Part shown: positions 462 to 52,008 of the stretch, piece after piece | How positions within the stretch are numbered: the first letter of the stretch is position 1 | Layout: every line of letters starts with the position of its first letter | Virus record (IMG/VR): IMGVR_UViG_3300047160_036265 | Reading direction: 5' to 3' (one strand) | Length of the DNA: 64,000 nucleotides | Source of the DNA: a virus | Notes under the pieces: generated by a model | Databases searched by the model: none | What the model saw: the letters and a program-made list of their open reading frames with translations, nothing else | What the model was told of the DNA's origin: nothing | Position numbers and translations under genes: made by a program

Positions 462-756
462 TCTGATTGGCCCAAGTAGGCGACACCGGAAGCTGCAACT
501 TAAAAGCGTTCGGATCGACTGGCTTGCTGTCCCACCCCAGAGCCTTGATGAAGCACGTTTTGCAAAACGCGACTTCATGAATTTGCTCCGGGCGAATTCT
601 GCCCTCGGCATCGGGCAGGGGTAAGTTGTCACCCACCAGGCCCGCCCGTTCGTGCAGACTGGCACGGAAGATGTTGCCCTGAACGATCACCCCGAATTCG
701 GGTTTGAGGATCGGCTGCTCGCAGCCCTCGCAGACCAGGAATTCCGTGGTTTTCAC
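454..756 (-). CDS. hypothetical Zn-ribbon protein with two CxxC motifs
   Basis: A 100-aa ORF with CEGC and CKTC motifs ~50 aa apart. It is tightly packed: it starts directly after the stop of the upstream kinase gene and overlaps the folD start by 8 nt. Confidence 0.4.
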   Translation of the reverse strand: MKTTEFLVCEGCEQPILKPEFGVIVQGNIFRASLHERAGLVGDNLPLPDAEGRIRPEQIHEVAFCKTCFIKALGWDSKPVDPNAFKLQLPVSPTWANQNG

Positions 757-13529: not shown

Positions 13530-14429
13530 CTACTGGCTGACCCTGCGAACGATCTCACTGATCTCGTCCAGGGCCGTCTTGTACTTGTCGGGCATTTCAA
13601 CACACTTGGCAAGGCTGCCGTAATGCTCCTCAAGGCAGTCCAGAAGTAGCTGCTTGATCGCTGCCTCATCCGGCCCCCAGGGCAGGGTGGACTTCTCGTA
13701 CAGGGCCTCCAGTTCCTTCTCCTTGGCGGCGAAATAGTCCCGAATCTGCTGTTCGGTCCAGTCGCCCCGCCGGATGGACTTCAGTTGTTCACGGTTGCGC
13801 TGAAGATCAAGGTCGCCCTCGGCCATCAGCATCTCGACTTCATTCAAAAGTCGCACAACATGATATGCGAACTTGAGATCAAAACCGTGTTCTTCGATCA
13901 TGGCCTGACGCTTGCTGGACTCACGTTCCTTCTTGCCCATCTTATTGACCTGTTGATAGGCATAACCCTTGAAGGTGTGCCAGCACTTCTTGTGCAGGAA
14001 CATCTTGCGCTTCTCCCGGACCATCTGCCCGACGCGCGTAATATGCAGCACGCAGTTGTCCGGCGTGAACAAGGAGTCGATCATATTCGGGTTGTTGCCC
14101 ATGACCAACTGGAAATAGTCCACGATGTTATAGCAGTTCAGGTCGTAGTCCCGGCCCTTGCCGCCCATCGCATCGTCGTCCTTGACATGATGCTCCTGGT
14201 AGTTGGAGAAGCGGTGCTTCTGCGTGCCAAAGCCGATGATCTCGCCTCGAAGATGGGGGAATATATCCTCTTTAGGTGGCACACAAAAAGCATAAATATC
14301 CATGTCGGACGTATCGCTGGACACACCATAGGCCACGCTGCCCATGAGGGTTTCGTAGTGGACGTTGTTCGGCAGCCAGGCCGGCGGGTGGGCGAGCTTT
14401 TTCTCGGTCAGTTCTCGAATGTAGCTCAT
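13530..14429 (-). CDS. Pol-beta superfamily nucleotidyltransferase
   Basis: GSVAYGVSSDTSDMDIYAFC carries the GS..[DE].D motif. Confidence 0.55.
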   Translation of the reverse strand: MSYIRELTEKKLAHPPAWLPNNVHYETLMGSVAYGVSSDTSDMDIYAFCVPPKEDIFPHLRGEIIGFGTQKHRFSNYQEHHVKDDDAMGGKGRDYDLNCYNIVDYFQLVMGNNPNMIDSLFTPDNCVLHITRVGQMVREKRKMFLHKKCWHTFKGYAYQQVNKMGKKERESSKRQAMIEEHGFDLKFAYHVVRLLNEVEMLMAEGDLDLQRNREQLKSIRRGDWTEQQIRDYFAAKEKELEALYEKSTLPWGPDEAAIKQLLLDCLEEHYGSLAKCVEMPDKYKTALDEISEIVRRVSQ

Positions 14430-17032: not shown

Positions 17033-17869
17033 ATGGCCATCCTGAACTTCAAGCAGTACCAAGCCGCCGCTAAATTGCGTCAACTCATCCCCGTGGCGGT
17101 GCGCATGATTCAGGGGGCTTTCAGCCTGCAAATGCCCCAACTCCAGGTCGCCCATCGTATTCACGAAATCCGTGGCCCCCACGATCCGGTGCGGGAAGAG
17201 TGGAACATGCTCTTCGCTGACCCCCATCCCTCGAACCAGAGTTTTCAGGAGTGGACCAAGCGATCCCCTGCTGCAATTTTCAACTTCGGCACAGAAGGGG
17301 ATGATATTCTTACTCAGTACGAGAACGGAGGCAGGAACCGGGTCTATTTCTCGATCAATCAAAAAGTAGTCAAGATTGCCGACGACAAAAACGAGGCTAT
17401 TATCGTCGGCCTGGCGATTGAAGGAGAGCGGATTCCAAATATTGCAGTGTTAGACGTGGTTCAACTGGCAACCTTCGCCAGCGCCATGCGCATTGAAGAC
17501 CTCTACGCCATTAAGCAGGAGTTGGTGAATACGAACATCAGCATGGAGTTGAACCGGGCGTCCATAGCGATCCTGACCTTCCTGGGGATCGCTGGCAAGG
17601 GGGCCTTGGCAAGATTGCGTGACCAGCCCCAGCGGGCAGTGGACAAAACCGCCATGTTCACGGCCCCGGAATCTGAGGCCGCAGTCCGCCCTTACATTAA
17701 GCTGATTCTGGACGTGGTATTCTTGCTACTAGACAAGACAGGCTACCTATGGACGGATATTGCACCAGGCAATATCGGCCAGGATGAAGGGGGGAAGCCG
17801 GTGCTTTTCGATCTGGGCATGATCTACGCCCACGGAAAGCCCCGGCTCCCCCAAATCCCCAGCATTTAG
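17033..17869 (+). CDS. protein-kinase-like fold protein (ePK/APH-like catalytic loop)
   Basis: WTDIAPGNIG...VLFDLG resembles the kinase catalytic loop (D.....N) and the DFG-like element. KVVKIADD may hold the VAIK lysine. Confidence 0.4.
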   Translation: MAILNFKQYQAAAKLRQLIPVAVRMIQGAFSLQMPQLQVAHRIHEIRGPHDPVREEWNMLFADPHPSNQSFQEWTKRSPAAIFNFGTEGDDILTQYENGGRNRVYFSINQKVVKIADDKNEAIIVGLAIEGERIPNIAVLDVVQLATFASAMRIEDLYAIKQELVNTNISMELNRASIAILTFLGIAGKGALARLRDQPQRAVDKTAMFTAPESEAAVRPYIKLILDVVFLLLDKTGYLWTDIAPGNIGQDEGGKPVLFDLGMIYAHGKPRLPQIPSI

Positions 17870-18661
17870 TCGTCCTGACCGACTTCTTCGCACGAGTTGA
17901 AGAGGATGTCGAACTTACCCCGCATCACAGCGTCGATATTGCGGGTCTTCACCCCCAGGCGGTGGTCGGCCACGCGACTCAGGATGAAGTTGTAGGTCCG
18001 AATCTTCGCGCCCCGTCCGCCGTTGCCCAGGGCTTCCTTGCGGGCCGAAGCGTAGGCGTTACTAGCAGCCTGGCGGCGCTTCTCACGCCAGCGGGCGTTG
18101 ACGATCTTGATGGCCTCTTCCTTGTTCTGGCCCTGGTCCCGCCCGTTGATAAAGACCCGGATCGTCGGGTCTTTCTTATAGACGCAGCGGATGGCGCTCG
18201 CCACCTTGTTGACATTTTGCCCGCCAGCCTTCTGGTGCCCCGTCTGGGCGGTGATTTCCAGGTCGCCCAGGGGGATCACATCCTTGGGGTCGGCTGGGGG
18301 CAACGGCAGGACCGCCACGGAAATCATGCTGGTCTGGCGGCGTCCCCTGGTTTCGGTGGGAGGAACGCGCTGGACGCAATGACCCCCGGTTTCGTGCTGG
18401 AACGCCTTGAAGACGCCCCGGCCCCGGAACTGGATGATGACGTGGCCGTTTTCAGAAGTGAGAGTTTCGTGCCGGAAGCCCAGAGACAGGCCGTACTTAC
18501 GGTAGGCTTCCGCCAGGTCTTCCACGAAGAGCTTGGAATCCTGGCCACCCTCACCGAACTGAAGTTCAACGATCAGTTCGGTGGAGTTCTCAAAGACAGT
18601 CGAGGGGTTTGTTCGGGACGACCCGCTCCTGATAGGTGTGGCGCTTGAATTTCTTGCTCAT
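17866..18661 (-). CDS. Class-I peptide chain release factor homolog lacking domain 1, expressed through a +1 frameshift (join 18661..18593 and 18591..17866)
   Basis: ORF0 opens with RBS GAAAGGAG and ATG 18661, encodes MSKKFKRHTYQERVVPNKPLDCL and ends ..CTT TGA G. The +1 frame continues ENSTELIVELQFGEGGQDS...HETGGHCVQRVPPTETRGRRQTS...QTGHQKAGGQNVNKV...KIRTYNFILSRVADHR, i.e. RF domains 2-4 with the GGQ motif. Confidence 0.7.
18590..18595 (-). other. prfB-type programmed +1 frameshift site CUU UGA (G)
   Basis: Identical to the conserved RF2 autoregulatory shift site. No AGGGGG-like stimulator precedes it. Confidence 0.55.
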
Positions 18662-18746
18662 GGCAGTTGCTCCTTTCAAAAGGGTTGCGGTAATCCACTC
18701 TTTCATGATACTGGCCCGATTTCCGTTTGTCAAACCTATATAGGGC

Positions 18747-21116: not shown

Positions 21117-21566
21117 TCAATAGAGTTTCAGCGGGTGGATTCCCTGTGGGCCGGTGATGCGGTCAATCGCTTCAGCCTGGGTCGGCCCGATGCCCAGGGC
21201 GGTATAAGTTGGAATGCCCTTCATACCCTCGCCAGTGGCCGTCAGGCCGGCGTCTTGGATTAAGAAGACTTCAAGGCCAGCCTGCTTGCACAGCCGCTCG
21301 ACCTCCAGAAGCTCCTCCTCGTCCTTGGCCTGAAGAACCACCTTGGTGGTCATGCCGCTCTCCATCCATACCCGTTGTTCAGGGTTGATGCGGAGGGCGT
21401 CCCAGATGGTGCCCTTAGTCTGTGAGGAACCGCTGGCAGCCCAGAGAACCCGGTGGATCAGGAACGCCGCTGCTGCGTGGCTCCCCTGGGCTATCTCCTT
21501 GCCCCGGCGCATCCCCAAGTCCCTGCGGATCACCAGCACTTGCTTCACTTCGTCGTGCGTCGGCAT
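21117..21566 (-). CDS. pth2: peptidyl-tRNA hydrolase, PTH2 (archaeal/eukaryotic) family
   Basis: KQVLVIRRDLGMRRGKEIAQGSHAAAAF and KVVLQAKDEEELLEV...LIQDAGLTATGEG...ALGIGP align with the Pth2 consensus. Confidence 0.7.
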   Translation of the reverse strand: MPTHDEVKQVLVIRRDLGMRRGKEIAQGSHAAAAFLIHRVLWAASGSSQTKGTIWDALRINPEQRVWMESGMTTKVVLQAKDEEELLEVERLCKQAGLEVFLIQDAGLTATGEGMKGIPTYTALGIGPTQAEAIDRITGPQGIHPLKLY

Positions 21567-25760: not shown

Positions 25761-26090
25761 ATGGCTTTATTCAACATTACGTTGGGCAACCCCGGAGTAG
25801 GCAATTTTCAAGGTGGCTGGAACGGCCACGGTGGCGGCATGTACCAGAACGAGTTCTACAACCAGGGAGGCGTTATGCTCCAGGGTGTCTGGATCAACGT
25901 CGCCAATGGGGGCCAGTGCGAAATAACCCAACAGGGAAACCAAGGCATGTTCATTAACGAACGTGGAAGCCAAGCTTATGGCATGATCTACCCTGGCCGA
26001 GTTGATATTCCCGCCTGGAACACGTCTGGCATGATCGCAGGGAACCGAATTGTCTGGCCGGATGGGAATTATTGGGAAAGGATTCAGTAG
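25761..26090 (+). CDS. Gly/Asn/Gln-rich small protein
   Basis: A strong RBS AAGGAGG precedes MALFNITLGNPGVGNFQGGWNGHGGG. Confidence 0.5.
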   Translation: MALFNITLGNPGVGNFQGGWNGHGGGMYQNEFYNQGGVMLQGVWINVANGGQCEITQQGNQGMFINERGSQAYGMIYPGRVDIPAWNTSGMIAGNRIVWPDGNYWERIQ

Positions 26091-46386: not shown

Positions 46387-47856
46387 CTACTCCTTCAGTC
46401 GAAGTTCCCTGCGAAGCTGCTCTGGGATGCCGGCAGGGGCTTGCATTACCGCCGTCCGCCCGTGGGCATTCATCGGAAAGGCGATCACTTCCTTCAGGGA
46501 CGTTTCATTGCAAAGTAACATGGCCAGGCGGTCCAGACCAAGGGCAATTCCGCCGTGGGGAGGCGTACCCAGATCGAAAGCGTCCAGCATGTGGCCGACA
46601 CTCTCCTCCGTCTCGCCCTGATTGTACCCCATATTGCGGAAGGTAGCTTCGAGGATGTCCCGCCGGTGGGCGCGAATGCTGCCGCTCCCCACTTCGTAAC
46701 CGTTGCAAACCAGATCGTACTGATACGCCTGAATCTGGTCGAGGTTCTTACCCTCAAGGTGCCACTCCAGGTGTTCCGCAATCGGCATCGAGAAGGGGTT
46801 GTGCATGAACGTATATTCGCCCTTGGTATCGAGTTTTTCCTCGGCGGTCGTCGCCTTTTTGTACATGGGAAAACGAACGACCCAGCAAAAGGCCAGGACG
46901 TTGTTCTGTATCTGGTCGGGAGTGCGGATGTCGGGCTTGTCCGTTTTGTATTTCTCCATCGCCTCCTGGTAGGTGAGGATGGGGAAGGTGGACATGGCGT
47001 TGTCGAGAAGGTCGTAGCGGCGCTCGTCCTTGTACTCGTCGTTGCACTTGCGGCTTAGTTTGTAGCAGCAATAACGAATCACATCACTGACATGGTGGAA
47101 TATACGCCATTCCTCCGGGAAGGCGATTTCCATGTCAAGTTGTGTGAATTCAAAACCACGGTCGAGACGCAGGCTCTCGTCCCGGATGCAGCGGGCGATC
47201 TGGTAATAACCCTCGAAACCCGCCGTCATGAGCAACTGTTTGTACTGCTGGGGACTCTGCGGCAGGGCGTAGAACTTGCCCGGCTGAAGACGCGACGGCA
47301 CCACAAAATCCCGTGCCCCCTCCTTGGTGGACTTGGTAAGCATCGGGGTTTCAATATAGGTGAAGTGCGTCGTGGCGCACTGGCCCAGGATCGTGTGAAT
47401 ATACTGGATGATTTTCGAGCGCACCAGCATGTTACGGTGCAAGCGTTTGCGGCGCAGGTCCAAGTAGCGATACTGAAGGCGCTTCTCCTCATTGATCTCA
47501 TAGCCTGGGCCGTCAATGGGGATGGGAAGCTCCTTGCACTTGTTGAGAACCGTGCATGTATCCACGACCACTTCGACGCTACCCGTCAACATCTCCGGGT
47601 TGACCATGTGTTCGGGGCGCTTGACGATCTTCCCCGTAATTTCCACCACGTCTTCGGCATTCAACCCCTTCATCAAACCACGACCTACGCACTGAACAAT
47701 GCCGGTGAAGTCGCGCAGGTCAATAAACACCAGTTTGCCGTGGCTGCGCACCGTGTCCACCCAGCCCTGGAGACGCCACAGGGTCGCATCAGGCCCGCCG
47801 GTGCTGGCAAGGCGCTGGGTGGATTCGGCGGTGGTTAGTTGTCCTGGCCTTCGCAT
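46387..47856 (-). CDS. aspS: aspartyl-tRNA synthetase, bacterial type but lacking the GAD insertion domain (~490 aa)
   Basis: IETPMLTKSTKEGARDFVVPSRLQPGKFYALPQSPQQYKQLLM, QIARCIRDE, EFTQLD, GSGSIRAHR and PPHGGIALGLDRLAMLL blocks. Start trimmed to MRRPGQLTT, which aligns with E. coli MRTEYCGQL. Confidence 0.8.
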   Translation of the reverse strand: MRRPGQLTTAESTQRLASTGGPDATLWRLQGWVDTVRSHGKLVFIDLRDFTGIVQCVGRGLMKGLNAEDVVEITGKIVKRPEHMVNPEMLTGSVEVVVDTCTVLNKCKELPIPIDGPGYEINEEKRLQYRYLDLRRKRLHRNMLVRSKIIQYIHTILGQCATTHFTYIETPMLTKSTKEGARDFVVPSRLQPGKFYALPQSPQQYKQLLMTAGFEGYYQIARCIRDESLRLDRGFEFTQLDMEIAFPEEWRIFHHVSDVIRYCCYKLSRKCNDEYKDERRYDLLDNAMSTFPILTYQEAMEKYKTDKPDIRTPDQIQNNVLAFCWVVRFPMYKKATTAEEKLDTKGEYTFMHNPFSMPIAEHLEWHLEGKNLDQIQAYQYDLVCNGYEVGSGSIRAHRRDILEATFRNMGYNQGETEESVGHMLDAFDLGTPPHGGIALGLDRLAMLLCNETSLKEVIAFPMNAHGRTAVMQAPAGIPEQLRRELRLKE

Positions 47857-48860
47857 AATGGCTCCAAATAAGCGGCGGCAAAGTCTACCTTCTTCTCGAA
47901 GGGCAGTTGCCGCATATATTCCCCATTCAACCAAAGGAGTTTCGCCGGGTCAAAACTGGCCGGGGAATCGTTCACGCCGTCCAATGAAAAACATTCTACC
48001 AGTTTCGCCAGTGGAATGATTTCCGAAGTTCCGTCCAGCGCCCAACCCAGGCGAGCCAAGTAGTTGACCATCGCCTCCGGCAGATAACCCATCGCCTGAT
48101 AATAGCCCAGGACCGCCGGGTTCAGATCAGTGCGTTCGGTAAAACCAATCGTTGTCAACTTCTCACACACGTCCGGGGTCATGAACTGATCCAGGTCGCG
48201 CTTGCTGAGCTTCTTCTTCGATCCCGGCGCACAAATAAAAGACAGGTGGCCAAACTTCGGTTCGGCCCAGCCCAAACTACGAAACAGGGCCAATTGAATG
48301 GGCGTGTTGCTTAGATGTTCCTCGCCCCGGAGGATGTGGGTCACGCCCAGGTCGTGATCGTCCACCACGGAGGCGAAGTTGTAAAGGAAGGTGCCGTCCG
48401 ACCGCCGGATCACCGGGTCTTTGATGAGCTTGTCATCCCAGGTGAGCTTCTTGCGGATCAGGTCGAAACAGCCGATGCCCACGCCATCATCCCAATGGGG
48501 GATGCTGAAGCGGACAGCGCCCTCCTCCTCGTAGGCCCACCCGGAGGCAAGCAGGCTGGCGCAGACCTCCCGGTAACGGTCCAGGCGCTCGGACTGATAG
48601 AACGGGCCGGCGTCATGCGACAGGCCCAGCCAGGCGAGGCCATCAAGAATAGGCTGCACGGCCTCTTCGATGTTGCGCTCGGTGTCGGTGTCGTCAATAC
48701 GCAGGATGAACCGGCCCTGGTAACGGCGGGCGTAGAGCCAGTTGAAAAGTGCGGTTCGGACGCCGCCGATGTGCAAGTACCCCGTGGGACTAGGTGCGAA
48801 CCGAGTGACTGGTTTGAGCATGAAGTTGAGCCTGTATTTGCTTGTGTACCTCCGGCCCAA
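47835..48860 (-). CDS. glutamyl-tRNA synthetase catalytic core lacking the C-terminal anticodon-binding domain (GluQ-RS-like architecture); probable start at 48821
   Basis: VTRFAPSPTGYLHIGGVRTALFNW is the HIGH motif and KLSKR is the KMSKS motif. Colinear with E. coli GluRS residues ~1-345, then stops. Confidence 0.75.
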   Translation of the reverse strand: MGRRYTSKYRLNFMLKPVTRFAPSPTGYLHIGGVRTALFNWLYARRYQGRFILRIDDTDTERNIEEAVQPILDGLAWLGLSHDAGPFYQSERLDRYREVCASLLASGWAYEEEGAVRFSIPHWDDGVGIGCFDLIRKKLTWDDKLIKDPVIRRSDGTFLYNFASVVDDHDLGVTHILRGEEHLSNTPIQLALFRSLGWAEPKFGHLSFICAPGSKKKLSKRDLDQFMTPDVCEKLTTIGFTERTDLNPAVLGYYQAMGYLPEAMVNYLARLGWALDGTSEIIPLAKLVECFSLDGVNDSPASFDPAKLLWLNGEYMRQLPFEKKVDFAAAYLEPLCEGQDN

Positions 48861-51447: not shown

Positions 51448-52008
51448 TCAAGAGTTCACAAGCTGAATTTTCTTTTCCATGATGGTGTCGATTTGCTTTA
51501 TGAACGACTCAACCAGAGCCAGAAGTTCCTTATCAAGCCGCCGTTCGGCATCTTCGCTCATAAGGGCCTTGGGGTCAAGGCGCTTTTTGGCCTTTTGTTG
51601 ACCCTTCTTCGCATCGTGTCTTATATTACGAATCGTCACCCGTGCGTCTTCGGCCAGGCCACGGATTTGGGCCACCAGCTTTTCCTTCTGGCCGCTGTCC
51701 ATGCGGGGCTGCGAGACATACACCACGTCCTCCTTGCCGGGCTGATAGACACTGTATCCCTGGCCTTCTAACGCCCGCCGCACGTCCGGCAACGCCTCCG
51801 GGTCATGGGGGCGAATCTGCACGTTGTTATGCAGTTGCGGCAGCACCATCGCCACCCGCCCCAACGGCTCTACGGTGCCCTTGAAACGCACGCGCACCGC
51901 CTCAATGACGGAGATCGTATTGCCGCCGTGCAAGCCGGCAAGGTTGTCCTTGAAGTGCAGCAAGCTCTTGTCCATCTTCTGTCGGGAATTTTGAATTACC
52001 TCTTTCAT
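51448..52008 (-). CDS. frr: ribosome recycling factor
   Basis: MKEVIQNSRQKMDKSLLHFKDNLAGLHGGNTISVIEAVRVRFKGTVEPLGRVAMV...VTIRNIRHDAKK...SEDAERRLDKELLALVESFIKQIDTIMEKK is colinear with E. coli RRF. Confidence 0.8.
   Translation of the reverse strand: MKEVIQNSRQKMDKSLLHFKDNLAGLHGGNTISVIEAVRVRFKGTVEPLGRVAMVLPQLHNNVQIRPHDPEALPDVRRALEGQGYSVYQPGKEDVVYVSQPRMDSGQKEKLVAQIRGLAEDARVTIRNIRHDAKKGQQKAKKRLDPKALMSEDAERRLDKELLALVESFIKQIDTIMEKKIQLVNS

Follow-up and report, generated by a model that had tools for sequence, protein, structure and literature searches.

How is the body of a class-I release factor (RF) translated if the short ORF in front of it ends, in another reading frame, at CUU UGA? This question is raised by a locus on the minus strand of the window, as we call the whole 64,000-nucleotide stretch of DNA analyzed here (IMG/VR record IMGVR_UViG_3300047160_036265), whose source phage is uncultivated. 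Bacterial prfB is the textbook gene that gauges its own product through a frameshift, and an earlier note on the window had proposed the same kind of site for this locus. We hold it to be very probable that one gene is read here in two frames, with programmed +1 frameshifting making the compact RF1-type factor of a huge phage or large element.

The locus and its product

The short ORF0 that had been described, with a ribosome-binding site, a start ATG and an end at CUU UGA, was recovered at the same coordinates on the minus strand (Table 1), and we regard the CUU UGA +1 frameshift arrangement in an RF homolog as confirmed. The +1 frame is open from 18659, is entered at GAG 18591-18589 and continues through 240 sense codons to TAA 17868-17866. 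The uninterrupted +1 run claimed before therefore stands, and its length of 241 codons does not, as that figure counted the shift-skipped TTT (18594-18592). The shift site lies 4 codons ahead of domain 2 β1, and the trans-frame product amounts to 264 aa. Its predicted junction peptide reads ...PLDCL up to the shift and ENSTELIVELQFGEGGQDSK behind it, and PLDCLENSTELIVELQFGEGGQDSK is an example of a predicted peptide spanning the junction. No ATG, GTG or TTG occurs in the body frame of the window ahead of GTG 18525, and a start at this GTG would drop the conserved β1/'GEGGQDSK' segment.

Table 1. Coordinates of the features at and around the RF gene in the window.
Feature	Position	Strand	Remark
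Terminator with 13-bp stem	19054-19024		closes upstream HNH gene
Candidate sigma-70-like promoter TTGACA-17 nt-TATCAT	18705..18733	(-)	consensus match, 11/12
Shine-Dalgarno (SD) GAAAGGAG	18670..18677	(-)	8 nt 5' of ORF0 ATG
ATG of ORF0	18661-18659	(-)	
ORF0 frame-0 leader, 23 codons MSKKFKRHTYQERVVPNKPLDCL + TGA stop	18590..18661	(-)	
+1 shift cassette TGT CTT TGA	18590..18598	(-)	junction conserved in relatives
E-site codon TGT	18598-18596	(-)	
P-site slippery codon CTT	18595-18593	(-)	
A-site stop TGA	18592-18590	(-)	
+1-frame body, RF domains 2, 3, 4; 240 codons + TAA	17866..18591	(-)	
3' hairpin, candidate stimulator	18547..18587	(-)	dG -22.7 kcal/mol
Decoding tripeptide P-P-T, RF1-type (CCT CCC ACC)	18355..18363	(-)	inside HCVQRVPPTETRGRRQTS
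Catalytic GGQ (GGC GGG CAA)	18217..18225	(-)	
RlaP-family gene	13530-14429		4 kb from RF gene

The HMM search that had been suggested returned matches of the 264-aa product to the Pfam families PCRF (PF03462, 3.9e-22) and RF-1 (PF00472, 2.6e-16). In agreement with the proposed absence of domain 1, the PCRF match is confined to profile positions 98-194 of 194, and that to the NCBIfam RF1 model begins at position 101, so that domain 1 (about 100 residues in RF1) is missing. Domains 2-4 and all motifs quoted earlier are present in the body. Among the four NCBIfam families compared, RF1 scores highest with 199 bits, followed by RF2 with 122, PrfH with 27 and ArfB with 18. The RF1 scores lie below the equivalog cutoffs (NF001859, 199 bits vs 400; TIGR00019, 185 vs 423), as do those for the PrfH model TIGR03072 (cutoff 166.65) and the ArfB/ICT1 model NF006718 (cutoff 100). 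PDB matches likewise rank RF1 (1e-39) before RF2 (1e-24), and the best Foldseek matches of the AF2 model (pLDDT 90.4) are ribosome-bound RF1 structures with TM values of 0.78-0.85. Domains 2/4 are present and confidently modelled, unlike in the ArfB/ICT1 architecture, where a GGQ domain with a basic C-terminal tail stands without a codon-recognition domain. The codon-recognition loop reads VQRVPPTETRGRRQTS; the RF1-like PxT motif pointed out before was found as PPT, without any SPF-like motif. About 70% of the clade have PPT, and the residues corresponding to Q181 and T194 of T. thermophilus RF1 do not vary in it. Alignment A1 shows no deviation from G-G-Q; alignment A2 shows none from G-G, with Q conserved to at least 90%. 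These matches support a class-I RF homolog that lacks domain 1 and carries predicted RF1-type decoding residues.

The ORF0-encoded residues are disordered in the AF2 model (residues 1-20; pLDDT about 55). Since five clade members and an entire second domain-1-less clade begin directly at domain 2, the comparison indicates that the leader is regulatory rather than structural. By phmmer the ORF0 tail ERVVPNKPLD aligns to the RF1 domain-1/2 linker; we regard this alignment, found for the closest relatives only, as weak.

A terminator and a candidate promoter lie ahead of the RF gene, which thus appears to be transcribed on its own. The translation-gene context noted earlier was found again in the form of PTH2, two aminoacyl-tRNA synthetases, 12 tRNAs and RRF, and no RtcB RNA ligase was detected in the 20 window ORFs scanned or in the 20-kb neighbourhoods of two relatives. 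None of nine neighbouring ORFs matched PHROGs, so that the viral nature of the contig is deduced from its relatives. A conserved gene neighbourhood around the family genes was looked for and not found, the DNA of the region gave no match to GenBank phages, and an exact look-up of the protein called in the window returned no record. Most relatives, like the window, use the standard code. Under it TGA ends 41, TAA 34 and TAG 18 ORFs of the window, which makes TGA a genuine stop here. Reassignment of a stop codon in the window was rejected, as all three stops end ORFs and alternative codes gain little coverage.

Conservation of the shift junction

The relatives were collected from huge viral contigs and metagenomes and comprise 98 non-redundant sequences with a median pairwise identity of 51%. 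CTT followed by a stop is found at the homologous 0-to-+1 junction in 83 of them, or in 65 of 79 clusters formed at 80% identity, 3-6 codons ahead of 'ELIxE'. Within these 83, CTTT is invariant, the frame offset is always +1, and CTT occupies 83 of the 90 junctions that have a frame-0 stop. As to the comparison with prfB sites proposed before, the flanks of the family match the published prfB cassette (PMC12421855) in three respects: a G-rich SD-like tract (-10 to -7, spacer 3 nt; 43/83 gated relatives), T at -6 (77/83) and C directly 3' of the stop (52/83). The E-site codon is TGT in 50 of the 83. In the nearest relatives (72-88% identity) CTT TGA G is unchanged and the E-site codon varies between TGT, TGC and TCC. 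As the residue preceding 'F' in the +1 reading is variable among relatives, the constraint appears to act on the nucleotides.

The substitution pattern points in the same direction. Compared with its relative L083, the window differs at frame-0 codon positions 1, 2 and 3 of ORF0 by 2, 2 and 7 changes, and at the +1-frame positions of the body by 5, 4 and 17, a third-position bias; a position matrix likewise displays three-base periodicity in the +1 frame downstream of the site. Judged from these alignments, both frames are under coding selection and the phase of substitution changes from 0 to +1 at the site. Leader ORFs with ATG and SD are basic family-wide, with a median of 21 codons in single-site genes and of 25 in total in tandem ones, and L082 and L083, nearest relatives of the window, keep GAAAGGAG at the equivalent position. 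The CTT-stop shift is missing from about 15% of the clade, including eight members with an in-frame TGA instead and the five that begin at domain 2; in the second clade an in-frame UGA is conserved at codon 35, a Trp position. Cellular genomes yielded ordinary RF1 only, with GTDB relatives reaching just 33-39% identity.

A one-base homopolymer error or a fresh inactivating mutation (CTTGAG to CTTTGAG), i.e. a misassembly or pseudogene, would produce exactly this arrangement by one extra T in a short T run, but this reading can practically be dismissed, as the same junction recurs in independent samples and assemblies and in a curated complete genome, the SD, ATG and length of ORF0 and the prfB-like flanks are conserved, and each frame has its third-position bias on its own side of the site. 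By itself, the 9-mer TGTCTTTGA is not improbable in the window, where it occurs twice against 0.49 copies expected and 8 of 100 shuffles reach two, which speaks on the side of error; the above-chance feature is its conservation. Transcriptional slippage is judged unlikely because the T run is just 3 nt long.

ORF0 could alternatively be an independent leader peptide, the body being translated by reinitiation or from a non-canonical start (e.g. CUG or AUC in ...GAACUGAUCGUU...) without any frameshift. Short uORFs overlapping or adjoining the gene behind them are frequent, and the clade members beginning directly at domain 2 fit such a scheme. It is nevertheless highly improbable given the invariance of CTT, although Leu has six codons, the conserved -6 T and SD-like tract at prfB spacing and the constant +1 offset. 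Just 2 of 48 single-site genes offer a body-frame ATG ahead of domain 2, the window has no ATG, GTG or TTG in that frame before GTG 18525, and genes with tandem sites would require the same improbable account twice.

Gate stops, tandem sites and stimulators

The stop of the body-adjacent gate is TGA in 50, TAG in 32 and TAA in one of the 83 relatives, and 35 of the 83 carry two tandem CTT-stop sites and are thereby spread over three frames. The curated complete phage genome LR756511.1 (595 kb) holds the tandem version, TAA then TGA, with its leader at 414,033-413,933. Heterotypic tandem genes combine UAG then UGA (9), UAA then UGA (4), UAA then UAG (4) and UGA then UAG (1), and an SD-like tract is found at 32 of the 35 upstream sites. 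Gates with UAG or UAA are present in 46 of 83 family genes. Among neighbouring genes TAA is the most frequent stop (39-44%), and it terminates 81% of the family RF genes, yet it is nearly excluded from the body-adjacent gate (1/83). In the family, the type of gate stop did not follow the decoding residues, the GC content or the stop usage nearby. Two simpler routes through the tandem genes, bypass of the spacer by a single -1/+2 event and an internal start, were rejected: between the two sites the body frame is closed in 34 of 35 genes, and ATG is missing from 31 of 35 spacers.

The site had been called exactly that of prfB, which holds for the CUU-stop and the leader of about 25 codons and fails for the SD-like tract and the 3' C. 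Positions -12 to -7 of the window site read CTCGAC in place of a purine tract (consensus AGGGGG) 3 nt 5' of CUU, and UGA is followed by G where a C would give a weak stop. As loss of the SD-like stimulator or of the 3' C reduces shifting in E. coli prfB (PMC12421855), shift efficiency in the window could be low.

The 50 nt following the window stop fold with a dG of -22.7 kcal/mol (z = -3.6) around a perfect 9-bp core CCGAACUGA/UCAGUUCGG (18581-18573, 18562-18554) that starts 8 nt past UGA. This hairpin is common to the SD-less nearest relatives L082, L083 and L106 and weakened in L081, where a change disrupts the pairing; compensatory changes were not seen. Strong hairpins are limited to the SD-less subclade of the window, and no downstream RNA structure was detected family-wide, the mean z being -0.71 vs -0.61 in control segments. 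The hairpin may be a lineage-specific substitute for the SD-like stimulator, or it may be a by-product of GC-rich codons and of the peptide TELIVELQFG, which is conserved.

Proposed mechanism and known systems

Sequence and comparison supply the first part of the course of expression that we propose. Transcription probably begins at the promoter of the RF gene itself, and ribosomes initiate at AUG 18661, which has a strong SD, and read 23 codons until CUU sits in the P site and UGA in the A site. The sole route into the conserved RF body is one base forward, with GAG as the next codon, and the product consists of a basic, disordered tail of 23 residues and, behind it, RF domains 2/4 and 3. By analogy with prfB, the peptidyl-tRNA-Leu in the paused ribosome would then re-pair with UUU instead of CUU while termination at UGA competes, possibly assisted by the hairpin in place of the internal SD-like stimulator missing from the subclade. 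Where termination wins, a 23-aa peptide would be released. The amount of full-length factor would hence be inversely proportional to the cellular capacity for UGA termination. As the factor looks RF1-type (UAA/UAG), termination at the window UGA should depend on host RF2, and the classical autoregulatory rationale would not apply, since an RF1-type factor should not read UGA. It is plausible that the output of the window factor is set by host RF2 activity, as one of several wirings in the family; in genes gated by UAG or UAA self-feedback would be possible, and others would place two gates in series.

A factor of broadened or altered specificity that also reads UGA would instead close a true prfB-like self-feedback loop, and this single rule would cover every stop type. 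The family does depart from cellular RF1 beside the decoding site: the universally conserved T. thermophilus H193 is replaced by Gln in the window and 55 of 83 members, I192 by Arg or Lys, and the tip Glu by Asp. We consider this reading unlikely all the same, given that the PxT Thr, Q181 and T194 are kept and are identical in TGA-only and TAG/TAA-containing genes, that an SPF-like motif is missing and that HMM, PDB and fold matches favor RF1 over RF2.

More weight, albeit still a minor share, goes to a real frameshift that serves as a fixed attenuator or two-product device, keeping the yield of a potentially toxic factor low and constant without reporting on RF2. Overproduced RFs can be harmful (PMC12421855), the stop varies freely (TGA 50, TAG 32) without matching changes in the decoding residues, and the window lacks both the SD-like element and the weak-stop C. 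Against it, sensitivity to the cognate RF is built into any shift competing with termination at a stop codon, as demonstrated for prfB (PMC12421855); the gate almost never uses TAA, which both RFs recognize; C is enriched 3' of the stop; and a weak promoter or RBS would make a simpler attenuator. Staying with a gate that responds to termination, we tentatively extend it to the family, a generalization for which belief and doubt are close to balanced with a slight lean to doubt. In it, compact RF1-type factors would be gated by an evolvable sensor of termination capacity built from one or two serial prfB-like sites with UGA, UAG or UAA, wired in each phage to host RF2, to self/RF1 or to both. 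Heterotypic tandems would act as multiplicative AND gates, and members with in-frame UGA and the second clade would be readthrough versions.

The family shares with prfB the short leader ORF (23 codons here; stop at codon 26 in E. coli prfB), a slippery CUU with in-frame stop, the body in +1, a class-I RF as product and, family-wide, the SD-like G-tract exactly 3 nt upstream and the C after the stop. It differs in that the protein is RF1-type, virus-encoded and free of domain 1, with the site just before domain 2. The idea that leader and site were retained from prfB is contradicted by this arrangement: the protein is RF1-derived and the site precedes domain 2 rather than sitting at codon 26 of domain 1, which argues for independent acquisition of the same cassette. 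The prfB gate stops of 8,164 genomes are TGA in 98.6% and TAA in 1.4%, with no TAG (PMC12421855), as opposed to 60% TGA, 39% TAG and 1% TAA in the virus family with its 35/83 tandem genes. In the window, moreover, UGA is predicted to be unread by the encoded factor, and SD-like tract and 3' C are missing.

A virus-encoded termination factor with two recoding events per gene, reminiscent of the tandem members, is known from Mimivirus and Megavirus, in whose class-I RF gene internal stops are passed by recoding, which its authors read as bacterial-like autoregulation (Jeudy et al. 2012, PMC3521657). That factor is of eRF1 type (eukaryotic/archaeal), expressed through one readthrough and one frameshift in a eukaryotic host, whereas the present family is of bacterial RF1 type, with one or two prfB-like +1 shifts and prokaryotic hosts. 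PrfH (RFH), which is linked to RtcB, is a class-I RF paralog that also lacks domain 1 and keeps a domain of codon-recognition type and GGQ (PMC6514570); the window protein differs by its canonical RF1 decoding residues, its weak match to the PrfH model and the absence of RtcB from the neighbouring ORFs scanned, and the word 'frameshift' is absent from that review. RF1 and RF2 of stop-codon-recoded phages (10.1101/2021.08.26.457843) and RFs of huge phages (PMC7162821) lie amid other translation genes, and phage RF1 was proposed to support UAA/UAG termination in phage-controlled translation. 'Frameshift' is absent from both the Borges et al. preprint (10.1101/2021.08.26.457843) and PMC7162821, and the accessible parts of the two reports make no note of a loss of domain 1; the window and most relatives differ from the recoded phages by their standard code. 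The +1 shift of antizyme at a stop codon as sensor and effector, as far as the accessible part of PMC1874602 describes it, and the possible occurrence of several +1 shifts in one gene in Euplotes and mitochondria (PMC5009743) are further likenesses. Both belong to eukaryotes, however, rely on different slippery codons and stimulators, and involve proteins unrelated to the RF family.

According to a 2025 survey, such frameshifting has been demonstrated for prfB and not for prfA. No report of a prfB-like +1 device in RF1-type or phage release-factor genes was found in the literature searched. If our reading is correct, it would to our knowledge mark three firsts: a programmed frameshift in a gene of RF1 type, UAG as the stop of a prfB-like cassette, and a tandem pair of +1 frameshifts in a prokaryotic virus. 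From thousands of bacterial genomes, surveys concluded that RF1 genes are never frameshift-gated and that UAG is never at the site (PMC12421855), and a 2016 recoding review called an RF1 counterpart unknown (PMC5009743). The prfB cassette has arisen independently in a virus-specific RF1-type factor and is kept over about 50% protein divergence, as a candidate means for huge phages to monitor and top up host termination capacity. The family further represents a natural set of variants in SD-like tract, E-site codon, 3' base and hairpin for dissecting CUU-stop shifting, and may provide compact parts for synthetic circuits responsive to RF1 or RF2 levels. For annotation it is relevant that gene callers truncate the family genes, the one in the window being called from GTG 18525 with loss of the stop-codon-reading tip, and that they also invent false starts within the shift sites.

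Anatomy and conservation of the shift site

Reading and translating the minus strand bore out all coordinates of the earlier note: a short frame-0 leader, ORF0, runs into CTT TGA and the body of the release factor (RF) continues in the +1 frame (see table). In this element TGA is a true stop codon. The +1 frame of the window holds no ATG, GTG or TTG upstream of GTG 18525, and a start at this GTG, as in the public gene call P0001 (219 aa, 669,797-bp contig), would cost the protein the 'GEGGQDSK' tip as well as its conserved beta1 strand. With two copies in the window against 0.49 expected, TGTCTTTGA alone is not significant.

Features of the window and loci or gene calls of its relatives
Feature	Position or identifier	Strand	Remarks
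Near-consensus promoter of RF gene	18733-18705	-	strong terminator upstream of promoter
Shine-Dalgarno (SD) GAAAGGAG	18677-18670	-	upstream of ATG 18661
ORF0, product MSKKFKRHTYQERVVPNKPLDCL	ATG 18661 to TGA 18592-18590	-	stop context GAC TGT CTT TGA G
+1-frame RF body, 240 codons	GAG 18591-18589 to TAA 17868-17866	-	translation
Strong hairpin	18547-18587	-	begins 8 nt 3' of UGA; perfect 9-bp core
Translation-maintenance genes around RF gene	13530-14429, 21117-21566, 51469-52008, 46387-48860	-	
93-nt tRNA	26088-26180	-	Rfam 62 bits; ~21-nt insert in anticodon loop
893-aa ORF	30129-32810	-	major vault protein shoulder and repeat domains (PF11978 7e-26, PF17795 7e-11)
Tandem loci, first part	L001, L007, L010, L014-L016, L036, L086-L089, L099-L105, L109-L115		
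Tandem loci, second part	L118, L120, L127-L135, L143, L147, L153, L156, L158, L159; L243 (LR756511.1) 521-600		
In-frame-TGA members	L003, L023, L095, L119, L132, L138, L144, L150		
Calls with false N-termini	P0039, P0053, P0066, P0081, P0095, P0105, P0112		

A protein search returned 7,932 matches including cellular RFs, and every one of the best 120, which were examined, is short (201–293 aa), many of them lying on 200–670 kb contigs. Their called N-termini are ragged and, where the +1 frame is open upstream, read x-F-[E/D/S/N] with variable x; this corresponds to NNC TTT GAN/AGN/AAN and thus to CTT plus a stop read one base earlier. DNA was retrieved for 80 IMG/VR and 80 metagenome loci, and the clade comprises 98 non-redundant members with at least 43 % identity to the window RF body. 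CTT and a frame-0 stop, with the RF body in +1 and 3–6 codons before 'ELIxE', were found in 83 of these 98 members and in 65 of 79 clusters (80 % identity), at a median pairwise identity of the genes of 51 %. In the position matrix of the 83 genes CTTT is invariant, T stands at −6 in 77, the E-site codon is TGT in 50, G occupies −10 in 57 and −9 in 49, and C follows the stop in 52; downstream of the site the +1 frame shows a clear three-base periodicity. The same layout is given for the cassette of the bacterial RF2 gene prfB, namely an SD-like tract, a 3-nt spacer, CTTT, the stop and then C (PMC12421855).

Comparison with the relative L083 showed 2, 2 and 7 substitutions over the frame-0 codon positions upstream of the site and 5, 4 and 17 over the +1-frame positions downstream, while basic leader ORFs with ATG and SD (median 21 codons) recur across the clade. 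Because the junction, its flanks and the leaders are conserved and substitutions are frame-specific, an assembly error, considered in the earlier note, or a pseudogene is excluded for practical purposes. GTDB species representatives yielded only ordinary RF1 at 33–39 % identity, therefore the clade is virus-specific as far as sampled. Public annotations systematically misplace the 5' end of genes in this family. In several calls, false 'MSLAP/MPLAP' N-termini arise from a start at GTG inside GGGGG-TGT-CTT-TAG of an upstream shift site.

The nearest relatives of the window, L082 (88 % identity), L081 (82 %) and L083 (72 %), resemble it in having one site only, in which G follows UGA, and in lacking the SD-like tract; CTT TGA G is kept throughout this subclade, with TGT, TGC or TCC as E-site codon. 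The canonical prfB site proposed previously stands as regards CTT TGA, but the canonical stimulators, the SD-like tract and the 3' C, are missing in the window. Confined to the same subclade is a hairpin (ΔG −22.7 kcal/mol, z −3.6 in the window) that could replace the SD-like stimulator. Against such a role, it overlaps the conserved peptide TELIVELQFG, whose codons may alternatively have produced it as a by-product; no compensatory changes were seen in the hairpin, and downstream structure is not common to the family as a whole.

Identity of the trans-frame product

In Pfam, the 264-aa trans-frame product matches RF-1 as well as PCRF, the latter restricted to the C-terminal half of its profile (98–194 of 194), in agreement with the RF domains and the absence of domain 1 noted earlier. 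Its best profile scores belong to RF1 models (199 bits, far under the 400-bit cutoff), followed by RF2 (122), PrfH (27) and ArfB (18), and alignment to solved chains gave 1e-39 for RF1 versus 1e-24 for RF2. The AlphaFold2 model, computed with 51 relatives in the input, reached a pLDDT of 90.4 and a pTM of 0.80 with high confidence outside the ORF0-encoded residues 1–20 (pLDDT ~55), and superposes in Foldseek on ribosome-bound RF1 with TM 0.78–0.85. The decoding loop VQRVPPTETRGRRQTS contains the RF1-type PxT threonine, as the first reading had it, along with equivalents of Q181 and T194, whereas the neighbouring His193 is replaced by Gln; GGQ is intact. Scores, structure matches and decoding residues together identify the product as an RF1-type factor without domain 1, and membership in the PrfA equivalog, PrfH or ArfB families is rejected on the scores. 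Mora et al. reportedly found in 2003 that domain 1 of cellular RFs is required for interplay with RF3, not for decoding or catalysis.

Stop codons, tandem sites and other junctions

The family proved richer than the single case of the window suggested. In contrast to prfB, where the gate stop is TGA in 98.6 %, TAA in 1.4 % and never TAG (PMC12421855), TAG serves in 32 of the 83 phage gates, next to TGA in 50 and TAA in one. Since TAA terminates 67 of the 83 RF genes (81 %) versus 39–44 % of neighbouring long ORFs, its near exclusion from the gate adjoining the body speaks for selection of a gate at which termination is slow and RF-specific. Within the clade, stop type showed no association with decoding residues, GC content or the stops used by neighbouring ORFs, and in a rough tree architecture and stop type each change many times.

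Tandem sites occur in 35 of the 83 frameshift-type relatives, the window itself being single-site. Their first ORF (4–18 codons, median 9, e.g. MSKKNRRYL) ends in GGRGG-NNN-CTT-stop-C, and a spacer of 9–23 codons (median 15) in the next frame leads to a second CTT-stop, after which the RF body begins. Two successive +1 events are needed, since stops block the body frame between the sites in 34 of 35 genes and no ATG occurs in 31 of 35 spacers. Stops are paired as TAG/TAG (12), TAG/TGA (9), TGA/TGA (5), TAA/TAG (4), TAA/TGA (4) and TGA/TAG (1), half of the genes thus combining different stops; the TAA/TGA version is found in LR756511.1, an unannotated 595-kb phage genome from the LR7565xx accession series of manually curated huge-phage genomes. 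A YTGAAR motif, which reads 'LK' in the leader frame, recurs 15–18 nt upstream of the site-2 CTT in many relatives (e.g. L013, L014, L036, L099, L129, L159). Between the shift sites, its TGA lies in frame with the RF body and closes that frame in 34 of the 35 tandem genes.

Among the other junctions, GTT TGA was found in two members and a direct start at domain 2 in five, and in eight the shift site is replaced by an in-frame TGA, which separates a short leader ORF from the RF body. These eight represent either readthrough or a TGA-sense code; for the flank of L138 (522-kb contig), ORF coverage is 0.79 with the standard code versus 0.98 with TGA as sense. A second, more distant clade from IMG/VR (L032–L080) consists of domain-1-less RF1-type phage genes with the direct start MKRVIEIRAAEGG, and about 37 of 39 unique sequences conserve an in-frame TGA near codon 35, at a Trp position of cellular RF1. 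Their flanks did not clearly point to recoding of TGA across the genome.

Regulatory reading and genomic setting

What the sequences show is a conserved shift cassette between two reading frames and a product of RF1 type. When CUU occupies the P site and the stop the A site, tRNA-Leu would re-pair on UUU in competition with the release factor, and judging from prfB the yield should drop as cognate RF activity increases. For the window gate the cognate factor would be RF2, for which the product is not predicted to substitute, and by this analogy the gene would sense RF2 and report host UGA-termination capacity, as the earlier note proposed. UAG or UAA gates could allow self-feedback, and heterotypic tandem gates would need both RFs limiting. 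Some members and the whole second clade do without a leader, so the peptide it encodes seems dispensable; a regulatory role of the leader fits. The initial observation is confirmed and its interpretation supported with corrections, in that the supposedly 'retained' leader and site have an origin independent of prfB, the window lacks the canonical stimulators, and the sensing of RF2 is only inferred.

Full-text literature searches turned up no account of a frameshift in any RF1-type gene or phage RF gene. Such frameshifting has been shown for prfB, not for the RF1 gene prfA, of which convincing cases were not found (PMC12421855). An RF1 counterpart has been called unknown, with reference to a giant-virus eRF1-type gene (PMC5009743) that uses readthrough plus frameshift (PMC3521657). 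RF1 and RF2 are listed in a huge-phage paper that leaves recoding unmentioned (PMC7162821), and their genes are reported in a recoded-phage preprint without frameshifting (10.1101/2021.08.26.457843).

The translation-gene context described for the window was recovered as well: besides an RlaP-family RNA-repair nucleotidyltransferase, PTH2 and an RRF homolog, it encodes a class II aaRS (Asp/Lys/Asn type), a GluRS/GlnRS-like catalytic domain and 12 tRNAs, every one on the minus strand. ARAGORN assigned no anticodon to the 93-nt tRNA, which by eye may have a UUU anticodon and an intron after position 37. The major vault protein match of the 893-aa ORF is unusual in a prokaryotic virus or element.
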